A stretch of DNA of 64,000 nucleotides from an uncultured Chloroflexia bacterium. GTDB lineage: Bacteria; Chloroflexota; Limnocylindria; Limnocylindrales; CSP1-4. The stretch is taken from positions 1,899-65,898 of the forward strand of contig CAVXVP010000032.1 in NCBI GenBank assembly GCA_963765245.1, read 5' to 3'. Positions 2,809 to 25,767 of the stretch are shown piece by piece. The position numbers were made by a program, and so were the translations under genes. The notes under the pieces are model-generated. The model made no database searches. It saw only the letters and a list, made by a program, of their open reading frames with translations, and was not told the origin of the DNA. How positions within the stretch are numbered: position 1 is the stretch's first letter; each line of letters opens with the position of its first letter.

Positions 2809-4055
2809 CGCGGCGAGCGTCTCGCGCAGGATCGCCACGAACCGCTCGATCTCGTCGACGGTGGTGTAGAGCGGGATCGGGGCGACGCGGATGAGGTCGG
2901 GGGCTCGGTAGTCGGCCACGACGCCGCGGGCGGCGAGCCGGGCGAGGAGCGCCTCGGCATCGTCGTGGCGAAGCGAGAGCTGGGCGCCGCGGGCGGCCGG
3001 GTCGCGCGGGGTGATGATCTCGATCGGGACGTCCGCCAGGCACGCCTCGAGGTGGCCGGTCAGCGCGATCGGACCGCGCACGGATCGCCGGCATCCCGAC
3101 CTCGTCGAAGATGGCGAGCGAGGCCGCGACCGGCGCGAGCGCGAGGATCGACGTCGTCGAGGTCGCCCAGCCGGCCGCGCCCTCGGCCGGCACGAACGGC
3201 CCCTCGGGGTCGAAGCGCACGTCCGGATCGAGTCCCCACCAGCCGCCGAGACGCGGGATCGACGCGGTCGCGCGCGTGGCGCTCGTGGACGAAGATCGAG
3301 CCCACCGAGCCCGGGCCGCCGTTCAGGTACTTGTAGGTGCACCAGGCGGCGAAGTCGACGTCCCAGTCGTGGAGCGACAGCTCGATGTTGCCGGCGGCGT
3401 GCGCCAGGTCCCAGCCGACGACCGCGCCCGCGTCGTGGCCGGCGGCGGTGAGCCGCTCGATCTCGAGCGCCTGCCCGGTCGCGAAGTTGACGCCGCTCAG
3501 GAAGACGAGGGCGAGGTCGTCCGCGTGCACGGCGATGGCCGTCTCGAGGTCCTCGGTCCGGACGAGGTGCTCACCCTCGCGCGGGCCGATGACGACGAGG
3601 TCCGTCGCCGGGTCCAGCCCGCGCTGCGCGAGGTGGCTCGTCAGGGCGTGCCGGTCGGACGGGAAGAGCGGCCCGTCGGCGAGGATCCGCCGGCGCCGGC
3701 CGTCGGGCCGGAAGAACGAGGCGAGCAGCAGATGGATGTTGACGGTCAGGCTGTTGAGCAGCGCGACCTCGATCGGGCGCGCCCCGACGATCCGTGCCAT
3801 CGACTCGCGCAGCGACGTGTCGAGCGTGAACCACGGACGCGCCGGGTCGAACCAGGCGTCGACGCCGAGGCGCGCCCAGGCGTCGAGTTCGGTCGCGATC
3901 GCCGCGGCCGCGGTCCGCGGCTGCAGCCCGAGCGACTGCCCCGCCAGGTAGATCGCGGGCGAGCCGTCGGGCGCGGTCGGGATGTGGAACCGGTCACGCC
4001 ATGCCGGCGTCAGCGCTTCGGCCGCGTCGCGTGCCGGCGCGTCGTCCTCGGTCAT
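2788..4055 (-). CDS. kynU: kynureninase (PLP-dependent), frame broken about twice (near 3260 and 3068)
   Basis: ATG (cat at 4053-4055). [13 protein letters not shown]...[15 protein letters not shown]...[20 protein letters not shown]...[11 protein letters not shown]...[15 protein letters not shown]...[48 protein letters not shown], then [21 protein letters not shown]...[16 protein letters not shown] and [11 protein letters not shown]...[15 protein letters not shown] lie in two other frames. Its 3' end overlaps fgd convergently by 21 bp. Confidence 0.8.
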
Positions 4056-4107
4056 GGGCCGGTCTCCGCTGTCGGGCGATCTCGCGAACGGAGGGTAGCA
4101 TTCGACG

Positions 4108-5118
4108 ATGCGTGGACCTCGATCCAGGCGGCCTGCCGCCCTCGCAGCGACCGTTCTCTGACCGCCGTCCTGCTTGCGCGGATGCGGCGGCCGCCATCCG
4201 CCTCGGGCGACCGCGCCACCGGCGACGGCGCCGGCAGCGCACACCGAGCGCCGCGACCACGGCCGAGTCGCACCGTCGCCGCCGACGCTCGCCCCGACCC
4301 CGGTCCCGTCCGACGGCTCCGACCGCCGGCCAGGAGCGCACCGACGCCTTCGGCATCGCGCAGGTCTGGGTCCCGGCCGGGACGTTCACGATGGGCACCG
4401 ACGCCAAGGCGATCGCGGCCCTCGAGGCGCAGTCACCGCCGACTGGGTCTCGCCCGAGTTCCCGAGCGAGCAACCGGCCCACGAGGTGACGCTCACGAAG
4501 GGCTATTGGATCGACAAGGACGAGGTCACGAACGCGGCCTTCGCGGCGTTCGTCGACGCCGGCGGCTACACGAACCAGGCGCTCTGGTCGGCGGACGGCT
4601 GGTCGTGGCTCGGCGGCAAGAAAGCGTCGAGCCTGCCGCTCCACTGCCACGGCGACGTCGCGGAGCAGCCGCGGATGTGCCTGACCTGGTACGAGGCGGA
4701 GGCGTACGCCGCCTGGCGCGGCGGCCGGCTGCCGACCGAGGCCGAATGGGAGTACGCCGCGCGCGGCCCGAAGTCCACGGTCTATCCGTGGGGCGACACG
4801 TTCGATCGCGAGAAGGCGAATGTCCTCAACAGCGTCGCTCCGAAGCCGGTCGGGAGCTATCCGACCGGCGCGAGCTGGGTCGGCGCCCTCGACATGGCCG
4901 GCAACGCGATGGAGTGGGTCGCCGACTGGCTCGCGGTCGACTACTACGCGACGAGCCCGAAGACCGATCCGACCGGCCCGGCGACCGGCACGATCAAGGT
5001 CGAGAAGGGCGGCTGGTGGGGGAGCAACGAGTTCGTGGCGCGCTCGGCCTACCGCCACTACGAGGATCCGCCGACCTACGGCGACAAGCACATCGGCTTC
5101 CGGGTCGCCTCGCAGTGA
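4108..5118 (+). CDS. formylglycine-generating-enzyme (SUMF1/FGE-sulfatase) family protein, probably secreted or lipoprotein; N-terminal third frame-scrambled
   Basis: The C-terminal 230 aa are intact: EFPSEQPAHEVTLTKGYWIDKDEVTNAAF...CLTWYEAEAYAAWRGGRLPTEAEWEYAARG...YPWGD...GNAMEWVADW...VEKGGWWGS...ARSAYRHYEDP...IGFRVA. GIAQVWVPAGTFTMGTD lies in another frame, with a shift near 4440. The candidate start ATG 4108 is preceded by GGAGGG and encodes MRGPRSRRPAALAATVL (signal-like). The exact path through 4108-4440 is unresolved. Confidence 0.6.
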
Positions 5119-5829
5119 GCCGGCCGACGATCGTCGCGATGGGTGGCGGCGGGTTCTCGATGGAACCGGACAACCCGCTGCTCGACGATCACGTCCTCGA
5201 CCTGGCCCGCGCCGAGCGCGGCCGGGAACGGCCGCGCGTCTGCTTCCTCGCGACGGCGAGCGGCGACTCGCCCGCCTACATCGCGTCGTTCTACGCGGCC
5301 TTCGCTCGCCGCGCCGAGGCGAGCCATCTCGCGCTGTTCATCCGGACCGTCGACGACGTCGAGTCGTTCCTGCTCGACCAGGACGTCGTCTACGTCGGCG
5401 GCGGCAACACCGAGAACATGCTCGCGATCTGGCGCGTCCACGGCGTCGATCGGGCCCTCGGTCGGGCCTGGGAGTCGGGCGTCGTGCTGACCGGGCTCTC
5501 GGCCGGGTCGCTGTGCTGGTTCGAGACCGGGTCGACCGATTCGTTCGGCGGGCTGGCGCCGCTGTCGCGCGGTCTCGGGTTCCTGGCCGGCAGCCATTCG
5601 CCGCACTACGACGGCGAGGCGACCCGACGCCCGCACTACCACCGGCTGGTCGCCGACGGGCACGCTGCCGGCCGGATATGCCGCCGACGACGGCGCCGCG
5701 CTCGTCTTCGACGGCACCGAGCTGGCCGAGGTCGTCGCGTCGCGACCGGACGCGCGCGGGTATCGCGTCGAGCGCGGACCGGCCGGCACGGCCGTCGAGA
5801 CCGAGCTACCGACCCGCTACCTCGGCTGA
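5115..5829 (+). CDS. peptidase E-like S51 family protein (frame broken once near 5657)
   Basis: GTG 5115 overlaps the preceding stop (GTGA). IVAMGGGGFS...RVCFLATASGDS...DVVYVGGGNTENMLAIWRVHGVD...VLTGLSAGSLCWFE (GxSAG nucleophile elbow)...GSHSPHYDGE. The tail GTLPAGYAADDGAALVFDGTELAEVV...TRYLG is read after an extra G in gacGGGcacg. Stop is at 5827-5829. Confidence 0.7.
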
Positions 5830-6520: not shown

Positions 6521-7611
6521 ATGCCGCCGGTCGCCGTTCGAATCCTCCATCCAGAGCCGGATCCGGCGGTCCGGCCCGCTCACGCGCTGGGTCGCGGATG
6601 CCCGGGCGACGCTCGCCGAGCACCACCGTCGTGGGTTCGTCGCCGCCGGCGCCGACGACGTGGCGATCGTCGGCGGCCGCCCCGGACGACCGGCCCTTCG
6701 GTGACCGCCTGCGTGAGCTCGTCGCGGACGTCGGGGAGGGCGGGCTGGTCGTCCTCGGTTCCGGGTCGATCCCGTTGGCCACGGCGAGCGACCGGAAGGC
6801 GTTCGTCGCGGTGGCCGCCGGGGAGGCGCGCCGCGCGCTCGCCAACAACCGCTACTCGGCGGACGTGGTGGCGATCGCGCGGGCCGAGACCCTGCCCGCG
6901 ATCCCGGACCTGCCGGGCGACAACGCCCTGCCGCGCTGGCTCGACGAGGTCGCCGGCTACCAGGTCGACGACCTGCGCCGCCGCTGGCGGCTCGCGATCG
7001 ACATCGACGGACCGCTCGACCTCGTCCTCGTCGGCGCCGGCGAGGGAAGCGACCCAGCCGACCTCTCGTTGCTCGCATCGCGGATGGACGCGCTCCGTGC
7101 CGTCGCCGCCGACCCGCGCGCCGAGCTGCTGGTGGCCGGGCGGACCTCGTCGGGAACGCTGGCCTGGCTCGAGCGGCACACGGCGGCACGCACGCGGGCG
7201 TGGGTCGAGGAGCGCGGTCTTCGCGCGGCATCGCGCGTGGCGCAGGGCGAGGTGACCGCCGCGCGGCGCCCCGACCGACCGCCCGGATCGATCCTCGGCC
7301 TCCTCCTCGACCGCGACGGCCCGGGGTCGCTTGGCGACCATCTCGCCCGTTTCGCCGACGCGGCGATCGTCGACACCCGGGTCCTGCTCGCCCATCGGGT
7401 CGGGGCCGAGGAGGCCGGCTGGCCCGCAACGGAGGACCGTTTCGCATCGGACCTGCTGCTCGCCGAGCGCATCGCCGATCCGTGGCTGCGCGAGCTGACG
7501 GCGTCGGCCGCGGCGGCCCCGATCCCCGTCCTGCTCGGTGGCCACACGCTCGTCGGACCGGGCGTGCGACTGGTCGTCGGCGGGACGCCGGGGCGCGCGC
7601 CATGGACGTGA
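6521..7611 (+). CDS. conserved hypothetical protein (function unknown; about two frame breaks in the first 170 nt)
   Basis: A 337-aa ORF at 6598-7611 has protein-like composition (GLVVLGSGSIPLATASDRKAFVAVAAGE...DIDGPLDLVLVGAG...IPVLLGGHTLVGPGVRL). A plausible N-terminus (LTRWVADARATLAEHHRRGFVAAGADDVAIVGG) lies in another frame. ATG 6521 is a guess. I recognise no family. Confidence 0.4.
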
Positions 7612-8808
7612 CGCCGGGCATCCGGCGCGATCCCGTCCCGGACCTCGATGCGGTCGGGCAGGACGACGGTCTCGTGGCGCGCATCCACGAGACGATCGCC
7701 CGCGACGGGCCGATCACGTTCGCCCGGTTCATGGACCTCGCCCTGTACGACCCCGACGGCGGCTACTACCGGGCCGAGGCGGCGCGTCCCGGTCGCGACG
7801 GCGACTTCCTGACCGCCCCGGAGGCGCACCCGATCTTCGGCGCCGCGCTGTCGCGGGCCGTCGCGGACGCGTGGGACCGGCTCGGCCGGCCGGAGCCGTT
7901 CGTGCTGCGCGAGTACGGCGCCGGGACCGGGACGCTCGGCGCTCGCCATCCTCGACGGCCTGCACGCGGAGCGGCCGGACCTCGCGGCCCGCGATCCGCT
8001 ACGAACCGATCGAGGTCGAGCCGCGCCGGCTCGAGGCGATCGCCGCGCGGCTGGAGGCGGCCGGTCACGGCGCTCGCCTGGCGCATGCCGCGCGTCGACC
8101 GGAGCGCCCGGTCGACGGGGTTCGTCCTCGCCAACGAGGTCCTCGACGCGCTTCCCGACGCACCGCGTCGTCGCACGCGGGCCGGCGCCCTGCGCGAGGT
8201 CCTCGTCGGATCGCGCGACGGCGCGTTCGTCGACGTCGAGGCCGACCCGATCCACGCCGGCGCTTGCGCGCCGTCTCGCCGACGAGGGCGTCACGCTCGC
8301 CGACGGCCAGCGCGCGGAGATCTGCCTCGCGGTCGACGGCTGGATCGCCGCCGCCGCGGCCGGTCTCGCGCCGCGGCGTCCTGCTGCTCATCGACTACGG
8401 CTACCCCGCGGCCGAGCTCTACGACCCGGTCCGGCGTCGCGACGGCACGCTCCGCGCCTACCTCCGCCACCGCGTCCACGACGACCCGTACATCCACGTC
8501 GGACGCCAGGACCTGACCGCCCACGTCGACGTCACCGCCGTCGAGCGGGCCGCGGCGGCCGCCGGCCTCGAGCCACCTCGGGACCACGACCCAGGCCGAG
8601 TTCCTCGTCGGCCTCGGCACCGAGGACCTCCTGCGCGCCATCCAGGCCGATCCCGGCGACGACGATGGAGGACTACCTCGCGGTCCGCTCGGCCCTCGTC
8701 CGGCTGCTCGACCCGGCCGCGATGGGCCGCTTCCGGGTCATGGCCTTCGGGCGCGACTGGCCGGACGGTCCGCCGCTCGCCGGTCTCGGGTATCGCCTCG
8801 CTCGATAG
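7602..8808 (+). CDS. MidA/NDUFAF7-type SAM-dependent methyltransferase (DUF185); at least 5 frame breaks
   Basis: ATG 7602 overlaps the upstream stop. ITFARFMDLALYDPDGGYYR...GDFLTAPEAHPIFGAALSRAVADAWDRLGRPEPFVLREYGAGTGTL, then IRYEPIEVEPRRLEAIAARLEAAG, FVLANEVLDALP, LADEGVTLADGQRAEICLAVDGWI, GVLLLIDYGYPAAELYDPVRRRDGTLRAYLRHRVHDDPYIHVGRQDLTAHVDVTAV, TQAEFLVGLG and MEDYLAVRSALVRLLDPAAMGRFRVMAFGRDW are scattered over all three forward frames in the right order. Stop TAG is at 8806-8808. Confidence 0.7.
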
Positions 8809-12089: not shown

Positions 12090-12098
12090 TGCTAGAAT
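12090..12098 (+). promoter_or_regulatory. candidate extended -10 promoter element (TGCTAGAAT) upstream of nuoA
   Basis: TGnTAGAAT lies about 104 nt upstream of the nuoA TTG start, in an otherwise very GC-rich intergenic region. No convincing -35 element is present. Confidence 0.3.
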
Positions 12099-12201
12099 GC
12101 CCACAGGGCCAGACGCCCGTTCCGGGTGCGTCTGCGCGCTCAACGGAGGATCCTCGGGCAAGCGGCGCCGGCCCGTGGCGCGTCGCTCGAAGGGAGTTCG
12201 A

Positions 12202-12558
12202 TTGACCGGCATCTGGTACGTCGTGGGGTTCGCCTTCGCCGGCGTGTCGTTCGTGTTCCTGACGATCGGCGCCGCGTGGCTGGTCTCGCACCGGAACCGC
12301 GGTGACGAGCACAAGGGCCTGCCCTACGAATCGGGGATCGACACGTTCGGCGACACCCACGGCCGGTTCGGACTGTCGTTCTACGTGTACGCCCTGCTGT
12401 TCGTCGCGTTCGACATCGAGGTGGTGTTCATCTACCTCTGGGCGATCGCCTTCGACAGCCTGCTGCTCGGCGGCCTGGTCAGCATGTTGATCTTCGTCGC
12501 GATCCTGCTCCTCGGCCTTGCCTACGCCTGGCGGAAGGGGGCCCTGACATGGCGGTGA
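12202..12558 (+). CDS. nuoA: NADH-quinone oxidoreductase subunit A
   Basis: TTG 12202 is preceded by GAAGGGAG. The 118-aa product has three TM segments and the motif [42 protein letters not shown]. Confidence 0.85.
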
Positions 12559-13286
12559 AGTCCACCACACGAGAGCCCGGCAAGGGCGGCGGCCGCGCGA
12601 CGACCTCGAGCATCCTGCCCGCCGTGACGGATGAGTCGACCGACCTGATCGTCCCGATCGTCGTCCCGAACATGCTCTGGAACGCGGCGGATCCGGAGGC
12701 CTACGACGGCGGCCGACCGACCGACATCGACCACCTCCGCGAGTTCGAGAACAGCGAGCTGATGCGCCGCGACGATGCGCGCTGGGGTGGCGTCCTCGAG
12801 GTCATCCCGACCCGCGCCGACTACGTCCTCGACCTGATCCGGATGAACAGCCTGTGGCCGCTCCTGTCCGGCCTCGCCTGCTGCGCCATCGAGATGATGT
12901 CAGCGGCGACATCGAAGAACGACATGGACCGCTTCGGCATGTTCCCGTTCCGCGCCAGCCCGCGCCAGGCCGACGTGCTCATCGTCGCCGGCACGCTGAC
13001 GACCAAGATGGCCGGCCCGCTGGTCCGCCTCTGGGAGCAGATGCCCGAGCCCAAGTGGTGCGTCGCGATGGGCGACTGCACCTGCTCGGGCGGCCGCTAC
13101 AAGCGCAGCTACTCGACGGTCGAGGGGATCGACCGGGTCATGCCGGTCGACGTCTACGTGCCCGGCTGCCCGCCCCGCCCCGAGGGCCTCATCTACGGGA
13201 TGATGAAGCTCCAGCAGCTGATCAAGGACCGGCGCGGCCACTGGCCCGAGCGGGCGATCGGCCCGACCGTGCCCGAGGACGTCTAG
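12549..13286 (+). CDS. nuoB: NADH-quinone oxidoreductase subunit B (with an N-terminal extension of roughly 90 aa)
   Basis: [17 protein letters not shown]...[31 protein letters not shown]...[15 protein letters not shown]...[13 protein letters not shown]. Intact ORF. Confidence 0.9.
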
Positions 13287-13288
13287 GC

Positions 13289-13837
13289 GTGGATCGCCAT
13301 TTCAAGGCGCGCCTCGAGGCCCGCTTCGCCGCGCAGCTGACCGGCCCGATCCGGCAGCGCCACGACGAGACCGAGATGCGGATCGCGCCCGGCGACGTGG
13401 TCCCGGTCATCACCGCGCTCCACGACGAGCCCGATCTCAACTTCCAGTTCCTGAGCGACCTTGCCGGCGTCGACACGGGCGTGGTCATGCAGGTCGTCTA
13501 CCACCTCTGGAGCGAGACGACACCGGACTGGCTGCGGGTCACCGCCGACGGCCTGTCACGCGACGACCCGCGCGTCCCCTCGGTCACCTTCCTGTGGAAG
13601 GGCGCGGAGTGGATGGAGCGCGAGGCCTACGACATGTTCGGGATCACCTTCGAGGGCAACCGCGACCTGCGCCGCATCTACATGCCGCCCGACTACCAGT
13701 CCTTCCCGCTGCGCAAGGACTTCTACCTGGCCGACGATGCCGCCCGCTCGCCCGGTGGCGGCGTCCGGCCGATGGAACGCACCGCATCCCCGACCAACGC
13801 CCCGGCGACGGCGCTCGTGCGCCGGTCGCCGGACTGA
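13289..13837 (+). CDS. nuoC: NADH-quinone oxidoreductase subunit C
   Basis: GTG start at 13289. LHDEPDLNFQFLSDLAGVD...VVYHLWS...TFLWKGAEWMEREAYDMFGITFEGNRDLRRIYMPPDYQSFPLRKDF. Confidence 0.8.
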   Translation: MDRHFKARLEARFAAQLTGPIRQRHDETEMRIAPGDVVPVITALHDEPDLNFQFLSDLAGVDTGVVMQVVYHLWSETTPDWLRVTADGLSRDDPRVPSVTFLWKGAEWMEREAYDMFGITFEGNRDLRRIYMPPDYQSFPLRKDFYLADDAARSPGGGVRPMERTASPTNAPATALVRRSPD

Positions 13838-13930
13838 CCGGAGCAACCGCTCGATGCCTGTCATCCCGCCCACCAGTCCACCGACGATCCCCGGGTCACG
13901 CTCGATCGCGAGCTGGGCGTCTTCGAGCCC

Positions 13931-15073
13931 GTGCCCGCGTACCCGCCGCGGACCGAGCGCGAGGCCGAGTTCTACACGCTCGGCGACGGCGAGATGTTCG
14001 TCAACATGGGGCCGCAGCACCCCTCGACCCACGGCGTCCTGCGGGTCGTCCTCAAGCTCGACGGCGAGAAGGTCGTCGACCTCGACCCGGTGCTCGGCTA
14101 TCTCCATCGCGGCGTCGAGAAGCTGTGCGAGAACGCCGACTACCACCAGGCGATCTGCTACACCGACCCGCTGGAGTACGTCAGCTCGCTGTTCAACGAG
14201 TGGGCGCCGGTGCTCGCCTTCGAGAAGCTGCTGGACGTCGAGGTGCCGCGGCGCGCCGAGTACATCCGGGTCCTCTCGTTGGAGCTGAACCGGGTCTCCA
14301 GCCACGCCCTCTTCATCGGCTGGATGGCGCTCGACCTGGGCGGCCTGACGCCGATCCTGTGGTCGTTCATCGAGCGTGACGAGATCGTCGACATGCTCGC
14401 GGCGCTGACCGGCCAGCGGATGCTCTTCAACTACTTCCGGATCGGTGGCGTCAACGGCGACCTGAACCACGAGTTCATGAGCCGCCTGGGCGACTGGATG
14501 TCGAAGGCGACCGAGCAGATCGAGTCGGGCAACGCCCTCCTCAACGAGAACGAGATCTTCGTCCGGCGGATGCGCGGCCTGGGGACGATCGACACCGCGA
14601 CCGCCCTGCGGATGGTGATGACCGGCCCGAACCTGCGCGCGACCGGCGTGCCGTTCGACATCCGCCGGGCGCATCCGTACAGCGTCTTCCCCGAGCTCGA
14701 GTTCGACATCCCGACCCGGACCGAGGGCGACTGCCTCGCCCGCTACCTGCTGCGCATCGACGAGATCAAGCAGAGCCTGCGGATCATCGACCAGTGCCTC
14801 CACAAGATGCCCGACGGTCCGGTGCTGGCCAAGCTGCCGCGGCTGCTGCGACCGCGCCCGGGCCGGGCCTACGCCGCGGTCGAGGGCCCGCGCGGCCAGT
14901 ACTCGATCTACGCCATCAGCGACGGCACCGACCAGCCGTTCCGGATGCGGATCCACGACCCGTCGTTCATCCACCTCCAGTCGGTCGGCCTGCTGATGCC
15001 GGGCCACCTGATCGCCGACACGATGGCGATCATGGCCAGCCTCGACCCGATCATGGGCGGCGTCGACAAGTGA
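13931..15073 (+). CDS. nuoD: NADH-quinone oxidoreductase subunit D
   Basis: Intact 380-aa ORF. MFVNMGPQHPSTHGVLRVVLKLDGE...LGYLHRGVEKL...RIGGV...EGPRGQYSIYAISDG...PFRMRIHDPSF. The start (GTG 13931) could be further upstream. Confidence 0.9.
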   Translation: MPAYPPRTEREAEFYTLGDGEMFVNMGPQHPSTHGVLRVVLKLDGEKVVDLDPVLGYLHRGVEKLCENADYHQAICYTDPLEYVSSLFNEWAPVLAFEKLLDVEVPRRAEYIRVLSLELNRVSSHALFIGWMALDLGGLTPILWSFIERDEIVDMLAALTGQRMLFNYFRIGGVNGDLNHEFMSRLGDWMSKATEQIESGNALLNENEIFVRRMRGLGTIDTATALRMVMTGPNLRATGVPFDIRRAHPYSVFPELEFDIPTRTEGDCLARYLLRIDEIKQSLRIIDQCLHKMPDGPVLAKLPRLLRPRPGRAYAAVEGPRGQYSIYAISDGTDQPFRMRIHDPSFIHLQSVGLLMPGHLIADTMAIMASLDPIMGGVDK

Positions 15074-16420
15074 CCGTCGTCGGGAAGAGCTGGAACCGGC
15101 TGACCCTCCCTGGGAAGGTCATCTTCACGGTCGTGCCGCTGCTGGTCGTGGTGACGGTCGTGGCCGTCGCGGCGATCGTGCTGCTCGGTCCGGCGATCGT
15201 CGACATCCTCGCCGCGAACCTGCCGATCCTGCGGTTCGTGATCGCGGTCACGGTCGTGCTCCTGATGACCGTCCCGACCGCCTTCCTGATCATCTACATG
15301 GAGATGAAGATCATCGCCCTGATGAACCTGCGGATCGGGCCCGACCGGGTCGGTCCGTGCGGCTCGCTGCAGTCGGTCGTCCACGGCCTCAAGGTCCTCA
15401 TGAAGGAGGACTTCACCCCGACCGGCGCCGACCCGATCGTCTTCACCTGGGCGCCGGTCGTACCTACCTGGCCAGCGTCATGACCCTGCTGGTCATCCCG
15501 TTCGCGCCCGGGCATCTTCGGCCAGGACCTCAACATCGGGCTGCTCTACTTCTTCGCGATCGGCGGCCTGTCGGTCGTCGGGCTGCTGATGGCCGGCTGG
15601 TCGAGCTACAACAAGTACTCGCTCCTCGGCGGCCTGCGCGCCGCGGCCCAGGTCATCAGCTACGAGATCCCGCTGACGCTGTCGGTCGTCGGGCTGATCC
15701 TGCTGGCCGGGCACGATGAGCCTCAACCAGATCGTGCTCAACCAGAGCGGCTGGTTCACCAACTGGTACGTCTTCCGGCAGCCGCTGGCGGTCCTGATCT
15801 TCTTCATCGCCGCGACGGCCGAGGCGAACCGGACGCCGTTCGACCTGACCGAGGCCGACTCGGAGATCGTCGCCGGCTTCGCGACCGAGTACTCCGGGAT
15901 GCGCTTCGGGTTCTTCTTCTTCGCCGAGTACGTCAACGTGTTCATCATCTCGGCGCTGACGGTGACGCTCTTCTTCGGCGGCTGGAACGCGCCGTTCCCG
16001 TGGCCGTGGCCGGTCGACATCGCCTTCAACCCGGGCAGCCTCGGCATCGGGATGCTGCTCGGCGTGGCGATCATCCCGGTCGTCCTGACGCTCCTCTTCG
16101 CGGCGCCGATCTGGCTGGCGAGCTCGCGGATCAAGGGCTGGCAGGCGCTCATCGGCGGCTTCGTCCTCGCCAACCTGTTCATCGTCGCGGTCGTCGGCGC
16201 GTGGGCCTACATCGGGCTCGACTGGGTCGCCGGGCTGCTCTGGTTCCTGCTCAAGACGTACACGTTCGTGTTCATCTTCGTGTGGATGCGCGGCACGCTG
16301 CCCCGCGTGCGCATCGACCAGCTGATGGACTTCGCCTGGAAGTGGATGCTGCCCGCGTCGCTGCTCAACCTGTTCCTGACCGCCGCCGCCATCGTCGTCG
16401 TCAAGACCGTGAGGCCCTGA
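15070..16420 (+). CDS. nuoH: NADH-quinone oxidoreductase subunit H (three frame breaks near 15462, 15510, 15710)
   Basis: GTG 15070 overlaps the nuoD stop. [26 protein letters not shown]...[16 protein letters not shown]..., then [17 protein letters not shown], then [31 protein letters not shown], then [46 protein letters not shown]...[25 protein letters not shown]. Two of the breaks are an extra G in a ccGGGc context. Confidence 0.85.
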
Positions 16421-17101
16421 TGAGCCTCGTCCCGGGCCTGGGCATCGTCAAGGGGATGGGGCTGACCCTCCGCCGCTTCTTCGAGCCCAAGGTCACCATC
16501 AAGTACCCGGAGGAGAAGCGCCCCGCTCCCGCACAAGTTCCGCGGCCGGCTCCAGCTGCTCTACGACGAGTGGGGCACGATCAAGTGCGAGACCTGCTTC
16601 CAGTGCGCCCAGGCCTGCCCGATCGAGTGCATCGACATGGGCGGCATCGACACGCGCGGCCGCTACCACGTCCACTGGGGCGCGCCCGAGACGTACGGCG
16701 AGCGCCGCGAGGAATCGGCGCTGCGGCGGTCCGGCCGTCCGGTCCCGGACCCCGCGTACGTGCCGTTCGCCGCGGTCGACCTGCGCGAGCTCGACAGGAT
16801 CCTCGACGACTTCGACCACGACCCGGCGGAGATGCTGCCGATCCTCGAGGCGACCCAGACCGCCTATGGCTACCTGCCGGTCGCGGCCCTCAAGCGGATC
16901 AGCCAGCGGACCGGCGCCTGGTACGCGTCGATCTATGGCACGGCCACGTTCTACAGCCACCTCCGGTTCGAGCCGCCCGCCTTGCGCGAGCAGGCCGCCG
17001 CCGTCGACAGCCATCGGCCGCCCGAGGCGACCTACCTGACCGCCCTCGACGCATCGCTGGCGGGCGCGCGCAAGCCGGCCCGCAGGCAGGCGCAGGCGTG
17101 A
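16420..17101 (+). CDS. NuoI-like N-terminal half (one CxxCxxCxxxCP motif) fused to a cysteine-free NuoE-like helical domain (one frame break near 16520)
   Basis: ATG 16420 overlaps the nuoH stop. [61 protein letters not shown] is NuoI-like. It then continues as [53 protein letters not shown], which is NuoE N-domain-like. No second ferredoxin motif is present and the last 154 aa contain no Cys at all. Confidence 0.6.
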
Positions 17102-17105
17102 CCCG

Positions 17106-18431
17106 ATGGTGAACCGCCTCAAGACACCCAAGGGCTGGCCGGCGATCCTGCTCGAGCGGGCCGGCGCCGCGGATCCGACCGACCTCGACGCGGCGGTGCG
17201 GGCCGGCGCGTTCGACGGCCTGCGACGCGTCGTCCGCAACTACGGGGCGACCGCGACGATCGCCACGATCGCGTCGTCCGGGTTGCGCGGCCGGGGCGGT
17301 GCCGGCTTCCCGGCCGCGGCCAAGTGGCGGCTGGCGGCCGGAACGCAGGCGCCGCGCCGCTACGTCGTGGTCAACGGCTACGGCGCGGACCCGGCGACCC
17401 GCACGGACGAATTCCTCCTCGAGAGCGACCCGTTCGCTGTCATCGAGGGCGCGGCGATCGCCGCGTTCGCCATCGGCGCGGGCGAGGTCATCATCGCGGT
17501 CCGCTCGGATGCCACGACCGCGATCGCGCGCCTCGGGTCGGCCATCGGCTCCGCCACCGAGGCGGGCTTCATCGGCTTCGACATCCTCGGCTCGGCGATG
17601 GACATCACGGTCACGGTCCGGCCGGTCCAGGGCGCCTACATGCTCGGCGAGGAGACCGTCCTGCTCAAGGCCCTCGCGGGCAAGCGCGGCCAGCCCGAGC
17701 AGCGGCCGCCGCACCCGGCCGAGAGCGGCCTGGACGGCATGCCGACCCTCGTCCACAACGTCCAGACCCTCGCCGCCGTCCCGTGGATCATCCGCAACGG
17801 CGCCGCGGCCTTCGCCCAGATCGGCAGCCCGGACAGCCCGGGCACGATCCTGGTCCAGGTCCGGACGCCCTCCGGCGACGGCATCGCGGAGGTCCCGCTC
17901 GGGACGCCGCTGCGCGAGGTCATCGGGCTTGGCGGGCGATTGCCTGCCAGCCGCTCGATCAAGGCCGTCCTGGTCGGCGGCCCGTCCGGTGGCCTGTTGC
18001 CGCCCGAGATGCTCGACACGCCGTACGACTTCGACGCGTTGCGTGCCGCGGGCGCGCACATCGGCTCGGGCTCGGTGGTCGTCGCCGACGATCGCGCCTG
18101 CGTCGTCGATCTCGCGCGGCTGCTGACCCGGTTCTGCGCCGGCGAGGCATGCGGCAAGACGATCCCGTGCCGGATCGGGACGCGCCGGCTGGTCGAGATC
18201 GCCGATCGCGTCGTCGAGGGCCGGCCAAGACCGACAGACATGACGCTGCTCGAGGACCTGTCGGCCGATATCGTGGCGTCCGCCCTGTGCGACCACGAGC
18301 GGCTGACGACCCTCCCGCTGTCCAGCGGGATGCGATACTTCCGGTCCGAGCTGGACGAGCACATCCTGCACAGTGCCTGCCCTGCCGGTGTCTGCCATCC
18401 GATCGCGGTGGCGGCCGGTGCGACCCGATAA
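17106..18431 (+). CDS. nuoF: NuoF-like NADH dehydrogenase flavoprotein subunit (divergent)
   Basis: Intact 441-aa [72 protein letters not shown], and a cluster region [12 protein letters not shown]...ALCDHE. Confidence 0.8.
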
Positions 18432-18439
18432 GGCGACCC

Positions 18440-21052
18440 ATGGCTGACCTGATCACGCGCCCCGACAGCCGCCTCGCGACCGAGCGGGAGGCACCTGCCG
18501 AATCGCTGCCCGAGCGCCTCATCGAGACGCAGTCGCCGCAGCGGCCGCAGGTCTCGCCGCGCATCCGGATCGAGGTCGACGGGCGGGTCGTCGAGGGCTT
18601 CGAGGGCCAGACGATCCTCGAGGTCTGCCGCGACAACGGGATCGAGATCCCGACCCTCTGCTACGAGCCGAAGCTCCCCGGCTTCGGGGCGTGCCGGATG
18701 TGCGTCGTCGAGGTCGAGGGCGAGGAGCACCCGCCGATCTCCTGCTCGCGCACGTGCGAGCCGGAGATGAAGGTCCAGACCCAGACCGAGGAGCTGCGCC
18801 GGCTGCGCCGGACGAACCTCGAGCTGATCTTCTCCGACCACAACGCCTACTGCCTGCCGCCGTGCCAGAACAAGTGCCCCAGCCACATCGACATCCCGGG
18901 CTTCCTCAAGGCCAACGCGGAGACGGACTGGCGCGAGAGCACGCGCATCTTCAAGCGCACGATCCCGTTCCCCAGCGTGCTCGGGCGGGTCTGCCCGGCG
19001 CCGTGCGAGGAGCACTGCCGGCGCGACGAGGTCGACGAGGCGATCGCCATCCGCGACAGCCACCGCTACGCCGGCGACCAGGTCCTCAAGGCGATGCTCG
19101 ACGAGGGCGAGGACCCGCCGATCCCGTTCGAGCGCCAGGCGCCGTCCGGCCGGCGCGCCGCGGTCATCGGCTCCGGGCCGGCCGGGATGGCCGCCGCGTT
19201 CTACCTGCTCCTCGCGGGTCACGACGTGACCGTCTTCGAGCGCGACCCGTCGCCCGGCGGCATGCTCCGCTACGGGATCCCGCAGTACCGCCTGCCCAAG
19301 GTCGAGGTCCTCGAAGCCGAATACGAGTCGATCACCCGGCTCGGCGGCAAGATCGTCTGCAACGCCGGTCTCGGCGTCGACTTCACGCTCGACGACCTGA
19401 CCTACCAGGGCTTCGATTCGGTCGTCGTCGCGATCGGCTGCTACGACACCAACAAGCTCGGCATCCCGGGCGAGGACGCCGCCGAGGTCCTCGACGGCCT
19501 CGAGTACCTGCGCACGGCGACGCTCGGCCTGCCGTACCCCGGTCACGCCGGCAAGCGGGTCGTGGTCATCGGCGGCGGCTTCACCTCGATGGACTGCTCG
19601 CGGACGTCGATCCGCCAGGGCGCCAAGGAAGTGACGCTCGTCTATCGCCGCGACATGAAGGACATGCCGGCCGCGAACGAGGTCCACGAGGCGATCGAGG
19701 AAGGCGTCACCGCGATCTTCCAGGCCGGACCGGTCCGGGTCGTCACCGACAAGAAGGGCAACGTCACCGGCGTCGAGTTCATCCGGATGGCGCCGGGCGC
19801 ACCGGACGCGTCGGGCAGGCGCCGCCCGGAACCGGCGCCCGGCACGGAATTCACGATCCCCTGCGACCGCGTGCTGCTGGCCATCGGCCAGGGCCCGGAC
19901 CTGACCTGGATCGGACCGGGGTCGGACGGGGTCGAGGCGACCAAGCAGAACCGGCTCAAGGCCGACGCCGTGACGTTCGAGACCGGCCGACCCGGCGTGT
20001 TCGGGACGGGCGACGTGCGGATCGGCGCGGCGACCGTGGTCGCGGCCGTCGCCGAGGGACGCCGCGCGGCCTACGCGGTCGATGCCTTCCTCAAGGGCAT
20101 GGACCTGACCGCGATCCGGACCCGCCAGACGCTGGCCGAGCCGCAGCCCGAGTTCCTGTCGATCGTGCCGTTCACCAGCGAGGCCAAGACGCCGCGCTAC
20201 CGGATGACCGCCCTCCACGCCGAGCAGCGCAACGACTCGTACATCGAGTACGAGCTGCCCTACACGCGCGAGGACGCCGTCGCCGAATCGACGCGCTGCC
20301 TGCAGTGCACCTGCGAGGCGATCGGCTTCTGCGACCTGCGCCGGCTCGGCATCGAGTACGGCACGACGCTGCCCACGCTCGAGCCGGAGAACCACCAGGG
20401 CGCCGGCTTCCGGAGCGTGACCGAGAACCGCTTCACCGGCGTCAACCACGACTACATCCGGGACGACTCGCACGCCTTCATCCTGCGCGAGCCGTCGCGC
20501 TGCATCGACTGCGGCCGGTGCGCCAACGTCTGCGCCGAGGTGGTCGGCGCCGCCTGCTACGACTTCATGCGGATCGGCTTCGATACGCTGGTCACGACAC
20601 CGTTGGACATGAGCCTCAACGACACGCCGTGCGTGTCGTGCGGACGCTGCGCCGAGACGTGTCCGACCGGGGCCCTGATGCCCAAGCCGCGCGTCCTCCA
20701 GAAGTACGAGGTCGACGAGAGCCGCTGCATCCTGTGCGGGATCTGCGTCGATGCCTGCCCCTACGACGCCCTGCGCGACGGCGCGGACATCGAGCTGTCG
20801 CACACGAGCCGCGACGAGCCGATGATCGACCTGATGGCGATCGCGGCGATCGACCGCGAGACCGAGGTGACCTACATCCGCCGCGAGCGCGACTGGGCGA
20901 CCCGCGCCGCGGCCGACGGACGGCTGATCGACACGTCGCGGATGCTGCCGATGCTGCCGCCGACCGTCACCGGCATCCCAGACAACGGACACGCGCACGG
21001 CAACGGCCATGGCCACGGCGGGACGGCCGTCGTCCCGACACACCACGAGTAG
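18440..21052 (+). CDS. 870-aa iron-sulfur flavoprotein in the NuoG position: NuoG-type 2Fe-2S N-domain + GltD-like FAD/NAD(P)H oxidoreductase + ferredoxin-type 4Fe-4S motifs + NuoI-like C-terminal half
   Basis: Intact ORF, ATG 18440. It reads in order:
- [51 protein letters not shown]...ISCSRTC
- [19 protein letters not shown]...[12 protein letters not shown]
- [47 protein letters not shown]
- [16 protein letters not shown]
- [23 protein letters not shown]
- [12 protein letters not shown]...[16 protein letters not shown]
- [24 protein letters not shown]
- a His-rich tail [12 protein letters not shown]. Confidence 0.75.
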
Positions 21053-21061
21053 GCCGACGAC

Positions 21062-21655
21062 GTGATGCGTCGCCTGATCCCGATCCTCCTGGCCGTGACG
21101 TTGCTGGGCATCGTCACCGGCATCGCCGTGATCATGCTGCTGTTCCTCGGCCAGGACTGGGGCGATGCCCTGTTCTGGCTGTTCGCGGCGGTGATGATCG
21201 GTTCGGCGTTCCTGGTCGTGACGATGCGCGACATCATCCGCTGCGGGCTGGCGATGATCGTCTGCTTCGGGTCGCTGGCCGGGATCTACGCGATCATCGG
21301 GGCGCCGCTGCTGGCCGCCGCGCAGGTCATCGTCTACATCGGGGCGATCAGCGTCCTGATCCTGTTCGCGATCATGCTGACCCAGACCAAGGACGCTCCG
21401 AGCCGGCTGGTCTTCCAGACGCAGGCGGTCCCCGCGGCGATCGCCTCGATCGTCATCGCGGTGGTCCTCGCCCTGGCGATCGGCGCGACCGATTGGGGCG
21501 AGGCGGCCAAGCGCGTGCGGCTGACCGCCGAGGCGATGTCGAGCGTGCTGTTCAACAGCTTCGTGCTGCCGTTCGAGATCGTCAGCGTGCTGCTGCTCGC
21601 GGCCGTCATCGGTGGCGTCTACCTCGCCAAGCGCGAACCGGGCGGGCCGTCGTGA
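21062..21655 (+). CDS. nuoJ: NADH-quinone oxidoreductase subunit J
   Basis: Intact 197-aa polytopic [25 protein letters not shown]...[22 protein letters not shown]. The start is GTG 21062 or ATG 21065. Confidence 0.85.
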
Positions 21656-21990
21656 GCGACTCGCTCGACGCCTACCTGGTCCTGTCCGGGCTTCTCTTCG
21701 CGATCGGCACGTTCGGGTTCCTCGCCCGGCGCAACGCGATCAGCATGCTGATGTCGATCGAGCTGATGCTCAACGGGGTCAACCTCGCGATCGTCGCGTT
21801 CGGGTCGTTCGGGACCGCTGCGGCCGCGGCCGCCGACCGGGCAGCGTCCGTGGCGGAGGGCTCGGTCATCGCACTGATGGTCATGGCCGTCGCGGCCGCC
21901 GAGGCGACGGTCGGGCTGGCCATCGTCATCGCCATCTACCGCAACAAGAAGACACCGCTGGTCGACGAATACGACGCTATGCGCCAATGA
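21652..21990 (+). CDS. nuoK: NADH-quinone oxidoreductase subunit K
   Basis: GTG 21652 overlaps the nuoJ stop. [42 protein letters not shown]...[21 protein letters not shown]. Confidence 0.85.
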
Positions 21991-22141
21991 GCGTCATGGA
22001 ACCGCCTTGCGCGCCGTCGGGACGAGCCGAGGGCAAGGCGCACCCGAGCATGCGAGCGAGCGCACCTCAAGGTGCGTGAGCGAACACGCGCAGGGTGCAA
22101 CGCGGCCATCGGCCGTCCGACGGCGCGCCTGATGACCGCCA

Positions 22142-24116
22142 ATGAACCCTGAGGCGCTGATCCCGGCGCTCGTGGTATTGCCGATGCTGGGGTTCCTGGT
22201 GACGGCGGTCGTCGGGCGCCGGCTCGGGAAGCAGGCGCACTGGGTGCCGGTGATCGCGATCTTCGCGGTCTGGGTCGCCGCGATGATGCTCGTCGTCAAC
22301 GTGCTGAGCGGCGCCGCGCCGCTGCTGCCGGGCTCCGAGGACTCGCACGGCTACGTCGTCGACTGGTTCACCTGGATCCCGGCCGACAACTTCGTGGTCA
22401 ACGTCGGCTTCGTCGTCGACGCGCTGACGGCAAGCCTGCTGATCGTGGTGACGACGATCGGCCTGCTCGTCCACGTCTACTCGATCGGCTACATGAGCCA
22501 CGACCCGGGGTACTGGCGCTTCTTCGCCTACCTCAACCTGTTCATGTTCTCGATGCTGCTGCTGGTCCTCGCCGGCAACTTCCTGGTCGTGTTCGTGGCA
22601 TGGGAGCTGGTCGGCCTGTGCAGCTATCTGCTGATCGGCTTCTGGTACCGCAAGCGCTCGGCGGCCCTCGCGGCCAAGAAGGCGTTCATCGTCAACCGGG
22701 TCGGCGACGTCGGTTTCATCCTCGGGATCATGCTGATCTTCGTCAGCCTCGGCACGCTCGACATCCGCGAGGTCATCGCGCGGATCGGCGAGCTCGATGC
22801 CGACGACGATCACGCTCATCGCCCTGCTGGTCTTCGCCGGCGCGATGGGCAAGAGCGCCCAGTTCCCGCTGCACGTCTGGCTCCCCGACGCCATGGAAGG
22901 CCCGACACCGGTCTCCGCCCTCATCCACGCCGCGACGATGGTCAACGCCGGCGTCTACCTCGTCGCCCGGACCAATCCGATCTTCGCCTACGCACCGTCG
23001 GCGCTCGTGGTGGTCGCCGCGATCGGCATCTTCACGGCCATCCTCGCCGCGTCGATCGCCATGACCCAGACCGACATCAAGCGCGTCCTCGCCTATTCGA
23101 CCCTCAGCCAGCTCGGCTACATGTTCGCCGCGCTCGGCGTCGGGGCGTGGACCGCGGCGATCTTCCACCTGATGACTCACGGCTTCTTCAAGGGCCTGCT
23201 CTTCCTCGGTTCGGGCTCGGTCATCCACTCGGTCCACGAGGAACAGGACATGCGCCGGATGGGCGGCCTGGCGGAGAAGATCCCGATCACCTACGTGACG
23301 ATGCTCATCGGCTCGCTGGCCATCGCCGGGATCCCGCCGCTCGCCGGCTTCTTCTCGAAGGACGAGATCCTGGGCAAATCGCTCAAGCTCGGGTTCGCCT
23401 GGGTCTGGCTGATCGGCTTCATCGTGGCCGGCCTGACCGCGTTCTACATGTTCCGGTTGATGGGCCTGACGTTCTGGGGCTCGTTCCGCGGTCCGCGCGA
23501 GATCTGGGACAAGATCCACGAGTCGCCGCCGATCATGACCATCCCGCTGATCCTGCTGGCGATCCCGTCCGTCTTCCTCGGGATGTACCTCGGCCTGCCG
23601 CTCGGAGACAGCCGGATCACCCACTGGCTCGAACCGATCTTCGCCGAAGGCGAGGCCGTCCTCCATGGCGGGGCCGCGGAGCCCGCCTACCAGCTGTTCG
23701 GCATCGATGGCGTGCTGATCATCGCCAGCGTCACGATCGCCACGATCGGGATGATCCTCGCCTGGCGGCTCTTCGGCGTCCAGCTCGGTCCCATCCGCAT
23801 GCCGTCCCGACCGGAGCGCGTCCGCGAGCTGACGGCGCGTGCGCCGTTCCTTTATCGCGCCTCGCTCAACAAGTGGTGGTTCGACGACCTGTACCACCTG
23901 CTGTTCATGGTCATCGGCGGGCGGATCGCGGCGGCCATCTGGTGGTTCGACCGTGAGGTCATCGATGGCACCGTCAATGCCATCGGGACCGGGACCATCG
24001 ACGCCGGCCGCGGGCTGCGCCAGGTCCAGACCGGTCGGGTCCAGAACTACGCCCTGGGCATCGCCATCGGCCTGATCGTGATGGCCGGGTCGTACCTGCT
24101 GCTTGCGGGCCGCTGA
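22142..24116 (+). CDS. nuoL: NADH-quinone oxidoreductase subunit L (one frame break near 22795)
   Basis: ATG start at 22142. [42 protein letters not shown], then in another frame [43 protein letters not shown]...[16 protein letters not shown]...[18 protein letters not shown]. Confidence 0.85.
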
Positions 24117-24118
24117 CG

Positions 24119-25767
24119 ATGACAGTCGACAGCATCCCGCTCCTGACGATCATCATCTTCCTGCCCCTCCTCGGCGCGCTGGCGGTCGCCATCGCGCCGG
24201 CCACGGCGGCACGACCGCTCGCGCTCGGGTTCGCACTCGCGACGTGGGTCGTCTCGCTCTTCATGCTCATCGGCTACCTGCCGCGGCCCGGCTTCCAGTT
24301 CGTCGAGACGGTCGACTGGATCCCGATCTTCGGCATCCAGTACAAGCTCGGCGCCGACGGGCTGGCGGTCGCCCTGGTGGTCCTGACCACGACCCTGTCG
24401 TGGATCTCGATCCTTGCCAGCTTCAAGCCGATCCAGACGCGGATCAAGGAATACATGATCTCGTTCCTCATCCTCGAGGTCGGCCTGATCGGCGTCTTTC
24501 TCGCGCTCGACACGTTCCTGTTCTACATCTTCTGGGAGATCGTCCTCGTCCCGATGTACCTCATCATCGGGATCTGGGGTGGCGCGAACCGGATCTACGC
24601 CACGATCAAGTTCGTCCTGTACACGCTCGTCGGGTCGCTGCTCATGCTCGTGGCGATCCTGGCGACCGCCTACGCGTACGCGGCTGGCCACGACGGCTCG
24701 TGGGTCGGTGCCTTCGACTTCGAGGTCCTGCGCGCGTATGCCGGGACCGGTGGGTTCGCCGACGGCCTACAGCTCCTCGCCTTCGTGGCGTTCTTCCTGG
24801 CGTTCGCCATCAAGGTCCCGATGTTCCCGTTCCACACCTGGTTGCCCGACGCGCACACGGAGGCACCGACGGCGGGCTCGGTGATGCTGGCGGCGATCAT
24901 GCTCAAGCTCGGCGCCTACGGGTTCATCCGGTTCGCGGTCCCGCTCTATCCGATCGGCGGCCGAGACCTTCGCGCCGGTGATCATCGTGCTGTCGCTGAT
25001 CGCGATCATCTACGGCGCGATCGTGGCCCTCGTCCAGCCCGACCTGAAGCGGCTCGTCGCCTACTCCTCGGTCAGCCACATGGGCTTCGTGACGCTCGGC
25101 ATCTTCGTGTTCACGGAGCAGGGCCTCCAGGGCGCGATCCTGCAGATGATCAACCACGGTCTGATCACTGGCGCGCTCTTCCTGCTGTGTCGGCATCATC
25201 TATGAACGGACTCACGACCGGACCATCGCCAAGATGGGCGGGCTGGCGGCGCGGACCCCGGTCTGGGCCGCGCTCTTCGGCTTCTTCGTCTTCGCCTCGG
25301 CAGGTCTGCCGGGGCTGTCCGGGTTCGTCGGCGAGTTCCTGGTGCTGCTCGGGACGTTCCAGGCAAACCCGTACGCGGCCGCGGTCGCCACGTTCGTGAT
25401 GATCCTGGCCGCCGGCTACCTGCTGTACATGTACGGGCGGGTCGTGTTCGGCGAGGTCTCCGACTTCCTGGCCGGACTCGGGGACCACCTGACCGATATG
25501 ACCCCGGTCGAGATCCTGACCCTGGCACCGCTCGGCGCGCTGGTCGTCATCTTCGGCCTTCAGCCTGGCCTGCTGCTCGACCTCGTCAACGGAACGGTCA
25601 GCGAGACCCTCCGCTCGGTCCAGCCGTCGGCACCGATCGCCATCCCGACCACGATCGTGGTCGGCCTCCTGGCGATCCTGGCCGTGCTCGTCCTGGCTCG
25701 CATCGCCTACGTGCTGATCCGGCAGAGCCGCGGCTCGCTCGAACCCGAGACCGGGGTCGCCCATTGA
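24119..25767 (+). CDS. nuoM: NADH-quinone oxidoreductase subunit M (two frame breaks near 24955 and 25187)
   Basis: ATG start at 24119. [21 protein letters not shown]...[45 protein letters not shown], then [28 protein letters not shown]...[14 protein letters not shown], then [19 protein letters not shown]...[14 protein letters not shown] in the other frames. Confidence 0.85.

Follow-up and report, generated by a model that had tools for sequence, protein, structure and literature searches.

The 64,000-nucleotide stretch analysed here in full, called the window (positions 1,899 to 65,898 of contig CAVXVP010000032.1, GenBank assembly GCA_963765245.1, from an uncultured Chloroflexia bacterium; 70.5% G+C), encodes on its + strand a respiratory complex I operon in the order nuoA-B-C-D-H, three unusual genes, nuoJ-K-L-M, and a further antiporter-like gene. 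The three unusual genes very probably represent a naturally split NuoI, the subunit of clusters N6a and N6b, with halves that reassemble and a three-gene cassette of Nfn/Stn type lying within it. The cassette would sit in the loop between the two cysteine motifs of NuoI, fused in frame at both ends. Its predicted products, encoded between nuoH and nuoJ, would be the N-terminal half of NuoI joined to the N-terminal domain of NfnC (226 aa), a NuoF-like protein (441 aa), and an NfnA-like protein joined to the C-terminal half of NuoI (870 aa). Few core subunits of complex I are as highly conserved as NuoI, and we know of no report of a split one.

The first of the three genes has no single open reading frame (ORF) in the uncorrected window. 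The frame that starts with ATG at 16420, overlapping the nuoH stop codon by one base, reads a NuoI N-terminus as far as ...YPEEKRP and then Arg/Pro-rich nonsense, while the continuation of the gene lies in the +1 frame and runs to a TGA at 17099-17101. If the CCCC run at 16518-16521 is shortened by one C, the gene encodes a protein of 226 aa. P0001, its closest relative in the database, has the same length and is 95% identical to the corrected protein; across the junction it reads YPEERAPLPHKF, and the corrected window reads YPEEKRPLPHKF. Because P0001 matches in both length and register, the correction is confirmed in both respects. Residues 12-75 of the corrected protein match positions 1-63 of the 121 positions in the NuoI model TIGR01971 (E 1e-15, 57.3 bits), and residues 9-73 correspond to residues 23-87 of a TYKY subunit from plants (7ar7_I). 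The gene thus has the NuoI-specific N-terminal region as well as the operon site between nuoH and nuoJ that is expected of nuoI.

Downstream of the NuoI segment, residues 125-186 match positions 2-63 of the 145 positions in PF01257, scoring 39.8 bits against a gathering cutoff of 24.8, and phmmer aligns residues 118-186 with residues 20-88 of NfnC (9bov_C) and residues 115-186 with residues 14-85 of StnC (8oh5_A). An AlphaFold2 model built from a 65-sequence alignment gives this helical domain a predicted local distance difference test (pLDDT) of 80-96, and the best Foldseek matches are the N-terminal domains of NfnC, StnC, HydC and NuoE. Against NfnC the domain shows 45% identity and a TM-score of 0.85 to the 67-residue resolved N-terminal domain in 9bov_C. 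The fusion therefore has the N-terminal helical domain by which NuoE, HoxE and BfuC dock on NuoF. PF01257 positions 64-145, which correspond to the thioredoxin-like domain with its four cysteines for the [2Fe-2S] cluster (N1a/C1), are missing. The corrected protein has five cysteines (56, 59, 62, 66 and 70) and none in its last 156 residues. All five are invariant, with none after residue 70, in 78 of 78 Limnocylindria relatives, so the NuoE [2Fe-2S] domain is truly absent. One of the five, Cys70 (CPIEC; 16628-16630), lies four residues past the ferredoxin motif; canonical NuoI and the distant relatives have Ala or Val at this position.

Between the two domains of the fusion is a linker that is better conserved, across the 78 Limnocylindria sequences, than the folded NuoE-like domain. 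AlphaFold2 assigns pLDDT below 50 to residues 63-114, which include most of this region. A very-low-confidence prediction together with conservation above that of the NuoE-like domain suggests that the linker may be a docking element and not a passive tether.

For this gene, the preliminary description of the DNA had proposed a NuoI N-terminus right after nuoH with one extra C near 16520, a single CxxCxxCxxxCP motif with no second one following, the N-terminal helical domain of NuoE in the same gene, and no cysteine in the last 154 residues and hence no [2Fe-2S] ligands. The profile hidden Markov model (HMM) searches it called for recover both NuoI halves and the NuoE domain, the five cysteines make up the complete count, and the uncorrected 154-aa ORF at 16637-17101 is Cys-free, so these proposals hold. 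Its reading of the junction as RP-PHKF does not, as the corrected sequence is RPLPHKF.

The complementary part of NuoI is found at the C-terminal end of the 870-aa protein. In a search with the last ~120 residues, residues ~753-801 cover positions 72-116 of TIGR01971 (E 9e-11) and also match 99-147 of TYKY 7ar7_I. NuoI families are the top matches for the isolated C-terminal piece, and the TYKY match runs well beyond the Cys motif. The two pieces consequently tile the NuoI model, and one solved TYKY chain, without overlap. When the halves are rejoined in silico, a single contiguous TIGR01971 match results, covering positions 1-116 of 121 at 110.6 bits, roughly twice the score of either piece alone.

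Counting of cysteine motifs leads to the same pairing. Read in all six frames, the 64 kb contain only four CxxCxxCxxxC motifs: the fusion gene has a single one (16586), and the gene for the 870-aa protein has three (20501, 20630 and 20726). Motifs 1 and 2 of the 870-aa protein (C688-C698 and C731-C741) align with the ferredoxin domain of HydA, NfnA and NuoG type. Homology to NfnA and StnA stops just before motif 3 (C763-C773), at the point where NfnA starts its Fdh-like domain with CxxCxxxC (A5). Since motifs 1 and 2 pair as a ferredoxin domain, motif 3 is left as the unpaired partner of the motif in the fusion, and only if these two pair does the motif count come out even. We also considered motifs 2 and 3 as a ferredoxin domain of their own, given that phmmer alignments to NfnA and StnA extend across both, and rejected this pairing: motif 3 faces the unrelated CxxCxxxC of A5 with almost no matching residues, and the partner of motif 2 is motif 1, as in HydA. 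The clusters of a 2x[4Fe-4S] ferredoxin are each held by three cysteines of one motif and a fourth from the other motif. Because the fourth ligand is borrowed from the partner motif, neither half alone would form the normal cluster pair, and the halves would have to co-fold.

The remainder of the cassette resembles subunits of bifurcating transhydrogenases. Residues 42-773 of the 870-aa protein align with residues 4-699 of the 1178-residue NfnA of Caldicellulosiruptor (9bov_A; E 8e-159), and the protein also aligns with StnA (8oh5_C; E 3e-138) and with an archaeal NfnA (9n5u_A). Its Pfam domains are Fer2_4, Fer4_20, Pyr_redox_2 and Fer4_Nqo3. It contains a NuoG-type [2Fe-2S] domain, a GltD/NfnL domain for flavin adenine dinucleotide (FAD) and NADPH, and three [4Fe-4S] motifs, with the C-terminal half of NuoI in place of the Fdh-like domain. 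The NuoG-type N-terminus, inserted GltD/NfnL domain and ferredoxin domain that mark NfnA of the Nfn-Bfu/Stn group are thus all present. The Fdh/NuoG-like molybdopterin-fold domain with A5 is missing, the NfnA/StnA alignment ending at ~699-701 of ~1175. All Cys motifs of the protein are invariant in 59 relatives. Its C-terminal tail (20987-21022) is His/Gly-rich and poorly conserved in sequence among relatives; it might bind metal.

The 441-aa protein carries the Pfam families Complex1_51K and NADH_4Fe-4S and matches residues 104-526 of the 584-aa NfnB (9bov_B), its best fits being the cores of NfnB, HydB and StnB. It has neither the N-terminal [2Fe-2S] domain nor the C-terminal 2x[4Fe-4S] domain of bifurcating BfuB. 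The full Bfu-family signature, a BfuB with N-terminal [2Fe-2S]/Zn and C-terminal 2x[4Fe-4S] domains plus a BfuC with C1, is accordingly not seen in the window. The N3 motif of this protein (18132-18173) deviates from ESCGKCxPCR in that the second Cys is Thr, with a conserved extra Cys five residues upstream. Two other motifs differ as well (17373-17393, 17754-17768), NGYGADPA standing in place of NADEGDPG, and HNVQT in place of NNVET. The variant N3 Cys pattern occurs in 45-46 of 46 Limnocylindria relatives, where the other two variant motifs are also well conserved; Thermoleophilia relatives are canonical. By its domain content, the cassette is a trimmed member, Nfn/Stn in type, of the Bfu lineage, made of bfuC, bfuB and bfuA homologues in that order.

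More distant relatives show how such a cassette may have been trimmed. In fusion proteins with 25-41% identity, the N-terminal half of NuoI is joined to a full NuoE with Cys ligands; the thioredoxin-like domain with its cysteines is present in P0219, P0225 and L084. Two operons, L084 (from a Thermoleophilia metagenome-assembled genome, or MAG) and L085, encode nuoABCDH, the NuoI half fused to full NuoE, BfuB, an NfnA-like protein with a NuoI C-terminal end, and nuoJKLM, followed where the contig reaches that far by a further antiporter-like gene. Their BfuB proteins, 636-643 aa long, have both accessory cluster domains and the canonical ESCGKCVPCR, and their NfnA-like proteins terminate in NuoI positions 69-114/115. 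At the domain level, the Thermoleophilia cassette appears to be of a complete bifurcating type. A third arrangement is found in L083, on a contig of 49% G+C. It consists of a full NuoE, a 1048-aa middle protein (2076-5222) that combines a thioredoxin-like [2Fe-2S] domain, NuoF and the GltD FAD domain in one polypeptide, and a HoxU-like protein of 265 aa, the end of which matches NuoI positions 69-114. The NuoI split point is common to all three cassette architectures and lies in the hairpin between the two motifs, at model position ~69-71. The same split point with different cassettes fits insertion into an ancestral nuoI. P0158 retains the thioredoxin-like domain with two of the four Cys ligands missing and, on that pattern, is an intermediate form; the contigs of P0158 and P0239 are too short for gene context. 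Because relatives carry full NuoE with Cys ligands, the Cys-free NuoE stub of the window represents a derived loss. In L084 and L085 (1-5900), the split-NuoI operon adjoins genes for aldehyde:ferredoxin oxidoreductase (AFOR) and tatAC, and in L084 only, a pyruvate:ferredoxin oxidoreductase (POR) fragment and an acyl-CoA ligase-like gene are found beside it. Such neighbours of the Thermoleophilia-type operons suggest that the version with full Bfu operates in an anaerobic setting linked to ferredoxin.

Among Limnocylindria the arrangement is fixed and common. A homologue search with the fusion protein returned 2945 proteins; the 120 best, from which details were taken, are 217-244 aa long and 77-95% identical, with 91-100% query coverage. 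A scan of one genome per species, with a 3-sequence alignment as query, found relatives of the fusion in at least 515 species-representative genomes. Most of the best 80 come from MAGs labelled Candidatus Limnocylindria/Limnocylindrales or "uncultured Chloroflexia", and one project contributed many of these as long contigs. The order nuoH, NuoI-N::NuoE', NuoF, flavoprotein::NuoI-C, nuoJ is collinear in 86 of 86 loci examined, in 78 of which the fusion is one uninterrupted match without a stop codon, and an intact, frameshift-free operon is present on the 2.2-Mb MAG contig CAWEYB010000001. The locus is therefore not decaying: the feature is real, conserved and widespread in what is a lineage of soil and freshwater Chloroflexota. 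The wider proposals of the preliminary description agree with these comparisons. It had located the sole motif left without a partner at the C-terminal end of the 870-aa protein, taken the two pieces for complementary halves of NuoI, and suggested that the cassette sits inside an ancestral nuoI and that relatives be searched for the same split. Two of the three motifs of the 870-aa protein do pair together, the halves do complement one another in both the model and TYKY, and the split recurs in all collinear loci and, with different cassettes, at the same position in distant relatives.

Coordinates of the features discussed are collected below. The complex I genes A, B, C, D, H, J, K, L, M and N are found in a single operon both in the window and in its intact relative L001, by tblastn and Pfam; the antiporter-like gene after nuoM is probably nuoN. 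NuoB of the window keeps the Cys motifs of cluster N2, and the gene for the 870-aa protein ends 10 nt before nuoJ.

Table 1. Features of the complex I operon and its split nuoI, in window coordinates
Feature	Position	Strand	Basis
nuoA, nuoB, nuoC, nuoD (membrane anchor and Q-module)	12097..15073	+	tblastn with intact L001 proteins, 90-97% identity; Pfam families on intact relative
nuoH	15073..16420	+	tblastn: two high-scoring segment pairs in different frames, jointly residues 2-449 of 449-aa L001 NuoH
NuoI-N::linker::NuoE N-terminal domain fusion gene, 226 aa after removal of one C	16420..17101	+	
NuoI N-terminal half, residues 1-75: N-terminal helix, YPEE region, C56-x2-C59-x2-C62-x3-C66-P, extra C70	16420..16645	+	
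CCCC run with one extra C, breaks reading frame	16518..16521	+	
Near-invariant linker, residues 76-117	16646..16771	+	conservation across 78 sequences from Limnocylindria
N-terminal helical domain of NuoE/NfnC alone, residues 118-186, no Cys	16772..16978	+	
NuoF/BfuB-like flavoprotein core, 441 aa	17106..18431	+	Pfam; match to 9bov_B
NfnA/StnA-like::NuoI-C protein, 870 aa	18440..21052	+	Pfam, NCBIfam; 9bov_A and 8oh5_C matches
NuoI C-terminal half, residues ~748-805 of 870-aa protein, C763-x2-C766-x2-C769-x3-C773-P	20681..20854	+	
nuoJ, nuoK, nuoL, nuoM (membrane arm) and probable nuoN	21062..25764	+	tblastn with L001 proteins; L001 gene table

Frame breaks are not confined to the fusion gene. 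When the window is compared with intact L001 proteins by tblastn, the reading frame is seen to change within two upstream genes that are unrelated, within nuoH (near 15711), the fusion gene and nuoL (~22800-22880), and twice within nuoM (~24953 and ~25185); the sites noted are ~6560, ~6683, ~7280, ~7940, ~8570, ~8654, ~15711, 16518-16521, ~22800-22880, ~24953 and ~25185. Several coincide with short runs of G or C. No stop codon occurs within the matched segments, whose amino-acid identity is 75-97%. The window-wide pattern looks like long-read assembly indel error, and because at least six other window genes have similar frame errors, the extra C in the fusion gene is probably an assembly error as well, not a biological feature. 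The two upstream genes, at 6530-8800 and syntenic with L001, encode a 383-aa protein without a Pfam family and a protein of the Methyltransf_28 family; ~3.3 kb separate them from nuoA (12097). Scans of the whole 64 kb (1-64000) found no tRNA genes and no Rfam matches at the gathering threshold.

The frame breaks in nuoH, the fusion gene, nuoL and nuoM could be taken to mean a decaying pseudogene cluster, in which rearrangement and frameshift would have destroyed this nuoI and the genome would hold a working copy at another place, a circumstance that the preliminary description had named as fatal to its proposal. We give this explanation next to no credence. Unrelated upstream genes share the breaks, often at short G/C runs as is typical of assembly indels; reading frames persist without stop codons wherever tblastn aligns them; and nearly all of the 120 best homologues are full-length. 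Intact homologues, the tblastn frames, fixed synteny and invariant cysteines led us to reject it, and the conserved relatives contradict decay of the locus. Another view is that the halves stay apart, the N-terminal one binding a single cluster, perhaps by means of Cys70, and motif 3 of the 870-aa protein being a polyferredoxin-like extension of the NfnA-type chain. Cys70 is indeed clade-invariant and absent from canonical NuoI and from distant relatives, and polyferredoxins are also strong matches for the C-terminal region of the 870-aa protein. The flanks of both motifs, however, are NuoI-specific and not those of a generic ferredoxin, with NuoI families on top for the C-terminal piece. Coverage of the NuoI model is complementary and without overlap, the motif count is odd in the 870-aa protein and single in the fusion, and the same split is kept in relatives that do not have Cys70. 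As textbooks have it, moreover, the Q-module of complex I needs a NuoI-type subunit between the input module and N2. Separate halves therefore seem very unlikely to us. A further possibility accepts reassembly and has the enzyme run for the most part backwards, or serve as a coupled transhydrogenase, with proton-motive force or quinol reducing NADP+ or NAD+, instead of being an NAD(P)H dehydrogenase of respiration. The cassette does descend from Nfn/Stn transhydrogenases, which have separate NADPH (FAD) and NAD(H) sites, the latter at flavin mononucleotide (FMN) (PMC11829005), and the Thermoleophilia relatives, with their C1-bearing NuoE, both BfuB accessory domains and adjoining AFOR and POR genes, are compatible with such a role. 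The Limnocylindria form has lost C1 and the accessory BfuB cluster domains, and catalytic direction cannot be read from sequence. We regard this possibility as unlikely, if less so than the other two.

Several points tell against a reassembled NuoI and its proposed function. The TIGR01971 cutoff of 113.05 bits is reached neither by the fusion (57.3) nor by the C-terminal piece (41.5-56.7), and the rejoined sequence (110.6) falls short by 2.4 bits; two CxxCxxCxxxCP motifs in one polypeptide, as NuoI should have, are not found, since C56-C66 is on the fusion and C763-C773 on the 870-aa protein. Invariance of the extra Cys70 finds no explanation in a split NuoI, and the AlphaFold2 monomer gives the N-terminal NuoI half a pLDDT below 50. 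Because of the clade-conserved deviations at N3 and the flavin-site motifs, binding of FMN, NADH and the cluster by the 441-aa protein is uncertain, and with it NuoF-like activity. All relatives are MAGs or metagenome contigs, known from sequence alone. That the halves co-fold into a 2x[4Fe-4S] ferredoxin on NuoH, NuoB and NuoD is something we only infer. Even so, we hold the split and reassembled NuoI with its Nfn/Stn-type cassette to be highly probable.

The solved NfnABC structure suggests how such an enzyme might work. Its electron path is FAD-A7-A6-A3-A2-A1-[B1-FMN-C1]-B3-B4, in which B1-FMN-C1 is the proposed bifurcation site and A2-A4-A5 forms a branch that ends blindly in the Fdh-like domain; NfnC has its N-terminal domain in the cleft between the Fdh-like domain and the NfnB Rossmann fold (PMC11829005). 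In the window, the C-terminal NuoI half would start exactly where NfnA starts its Fdh-like domain, and the N-terminal half would be attached to the NfnC N-terminal domain. As one half would replace the Fdh-like domain and the other is carried by the domain that docks against it, both tethers would emerge from one region. Within the reassembled ferredoxin, each cluster would take three cysteines from one chain and the fourth from the other, and the input module would be held by two covalent tethers in place of the usual NuoG-NuoI interface. The former dead-end A2-A4 branch would become an exit to N6a, N6b, N2 and quinone, with NADPH entering electrons at the GltD-type FAD and NADH probably at the NuoF-type FMN. 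Because C1 of NfnC and the accessory BfuB cluster domains are lost, the Limnocylindria form is most likely a non-bifurcating, proton-pumping NAD(P)H:quinone oxidoreductase. Whether the specific path and substrates are as proposed here is, in our judgement, evenly balanced. Tentatively, and leaning slightly against it, we offer the broader idea of an undescribed complex I class in which an Nfn/Stn transhydrogenase module inserted in a split NuoI has its dead-end branch feeding N6a/N6b. NADPH (at FAD) and NADH (at FMN) would drive proton-pumping quinone reduction, and in reverse, proton-motive force would reduce NADP+. The Thermoleophilia form, with its C1-bearing NuoE and both BfuB accessory domains, would be a membrane-bound bifurcating machine that links ferredoxin with NAD(H), NADP(H) and quinone.

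If true, a two-chain 2x[4Fe-4S] domain welded to the input module would be a new mode of attachment to the complex I chassis, and it would bear on the recruitment of N-modules during complex I evolution. It also suggests a direct respiratory outlet for NADPH, or a source of NADPH driven by proton-motive force. The series from full Bfu (Thermoleophilia) through P0158 to the form in which the thioredoxin-like domain is gone (Limnocylindria) may serve as a natural record of the trimming of a bifurcating module. The pieces are currently annotated as "ferredoxin", "hypothetical protein" or "NAD(P)H-dependent oxidoreductase subunit E", and metabolic reconstructions therefore probably score such genomes as lacking NuoI, NuoE and NuoG. 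Relatives in at least 515 species-level genomes, with best matches in Candidatus Limnocylindria and other Chloroflexota MAGs, lend the arrangement ecological weight.

Searches of the searchable full-text literature, subscription-only literature lying outside its scope, yielded no account of NuoI being split or of nuoI holding an Nfn cassette, and targeted reading of Schut et al. 2022, Degli Esposti 2015, the Nitrospina genome paper and COGcollator 2.0 yielded none either; the arrangement is apparently undescribed so far. Its components are nevertheless related to known systems. With NfnABC and StnABC, the Bfu-family bifurcating transhydrogenases (9bov, 9n5u, 8oh5), it shares a 870-aa protein, a 441-aa protein and a NuoE stub that align to NfnA, the NfnB core and the NfnC N-terminal domain. 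It differs in that the NfnA Fdh-like domain (A5), the NfnB terminal cluster domains and the NfnC [2Fe-2S] domain (C1) are missing, and NfnABC/StnABC is a soluble enzyme, whereas the cassette of the window is embedded in the operon of a membrane complex I. A predicted Nuo-Bfu of 14 subunits (A-N), in which BfuABC replaces NuoEFG, is described for Geobacter, Planctomycetes and Nitrospirae (Schut et al. 2022, PMC9304861). It similarly has a Bfu-type NADH module instead of NuoEFG, with its genes in the middle of the nuo operon, but that paper describes no GltD/NADPH domain for it and nowhere has the word "NuoI" in its text, whereas the cassette here is of the Nfn (NADPH-FAD) type and lies inside nuoI. 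In mbx-like operons, according to Degli Esposti 2015 (PMC4758237), a GltD-related flavoprotein replaces NuoI. Both cases thus have a complex I-like operon with a GltD-type NAD(P)H flavoprotein in the place of NuoI, although there the flavoprotein substitutes for NuoI, and here both NuoI halves flank a three-gene cassette that includes a NuoF homologue.

Like canonical NuoI/Nqo9/TYKY (NDUFS8), the split protein has the N-terminal helix, the YPxE region, both CxxCxxCxxxCP motifs with NuoI-specific flanks, and its site between nuoH and nuoJ. Unlike it, the subunit is divided into two polypeptides encoded ~4 kb apart, with the break in the inter-motif hairpin and each half fused to a subunit of the input module. 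This is complex I in a new form, and not a system of a new kind.

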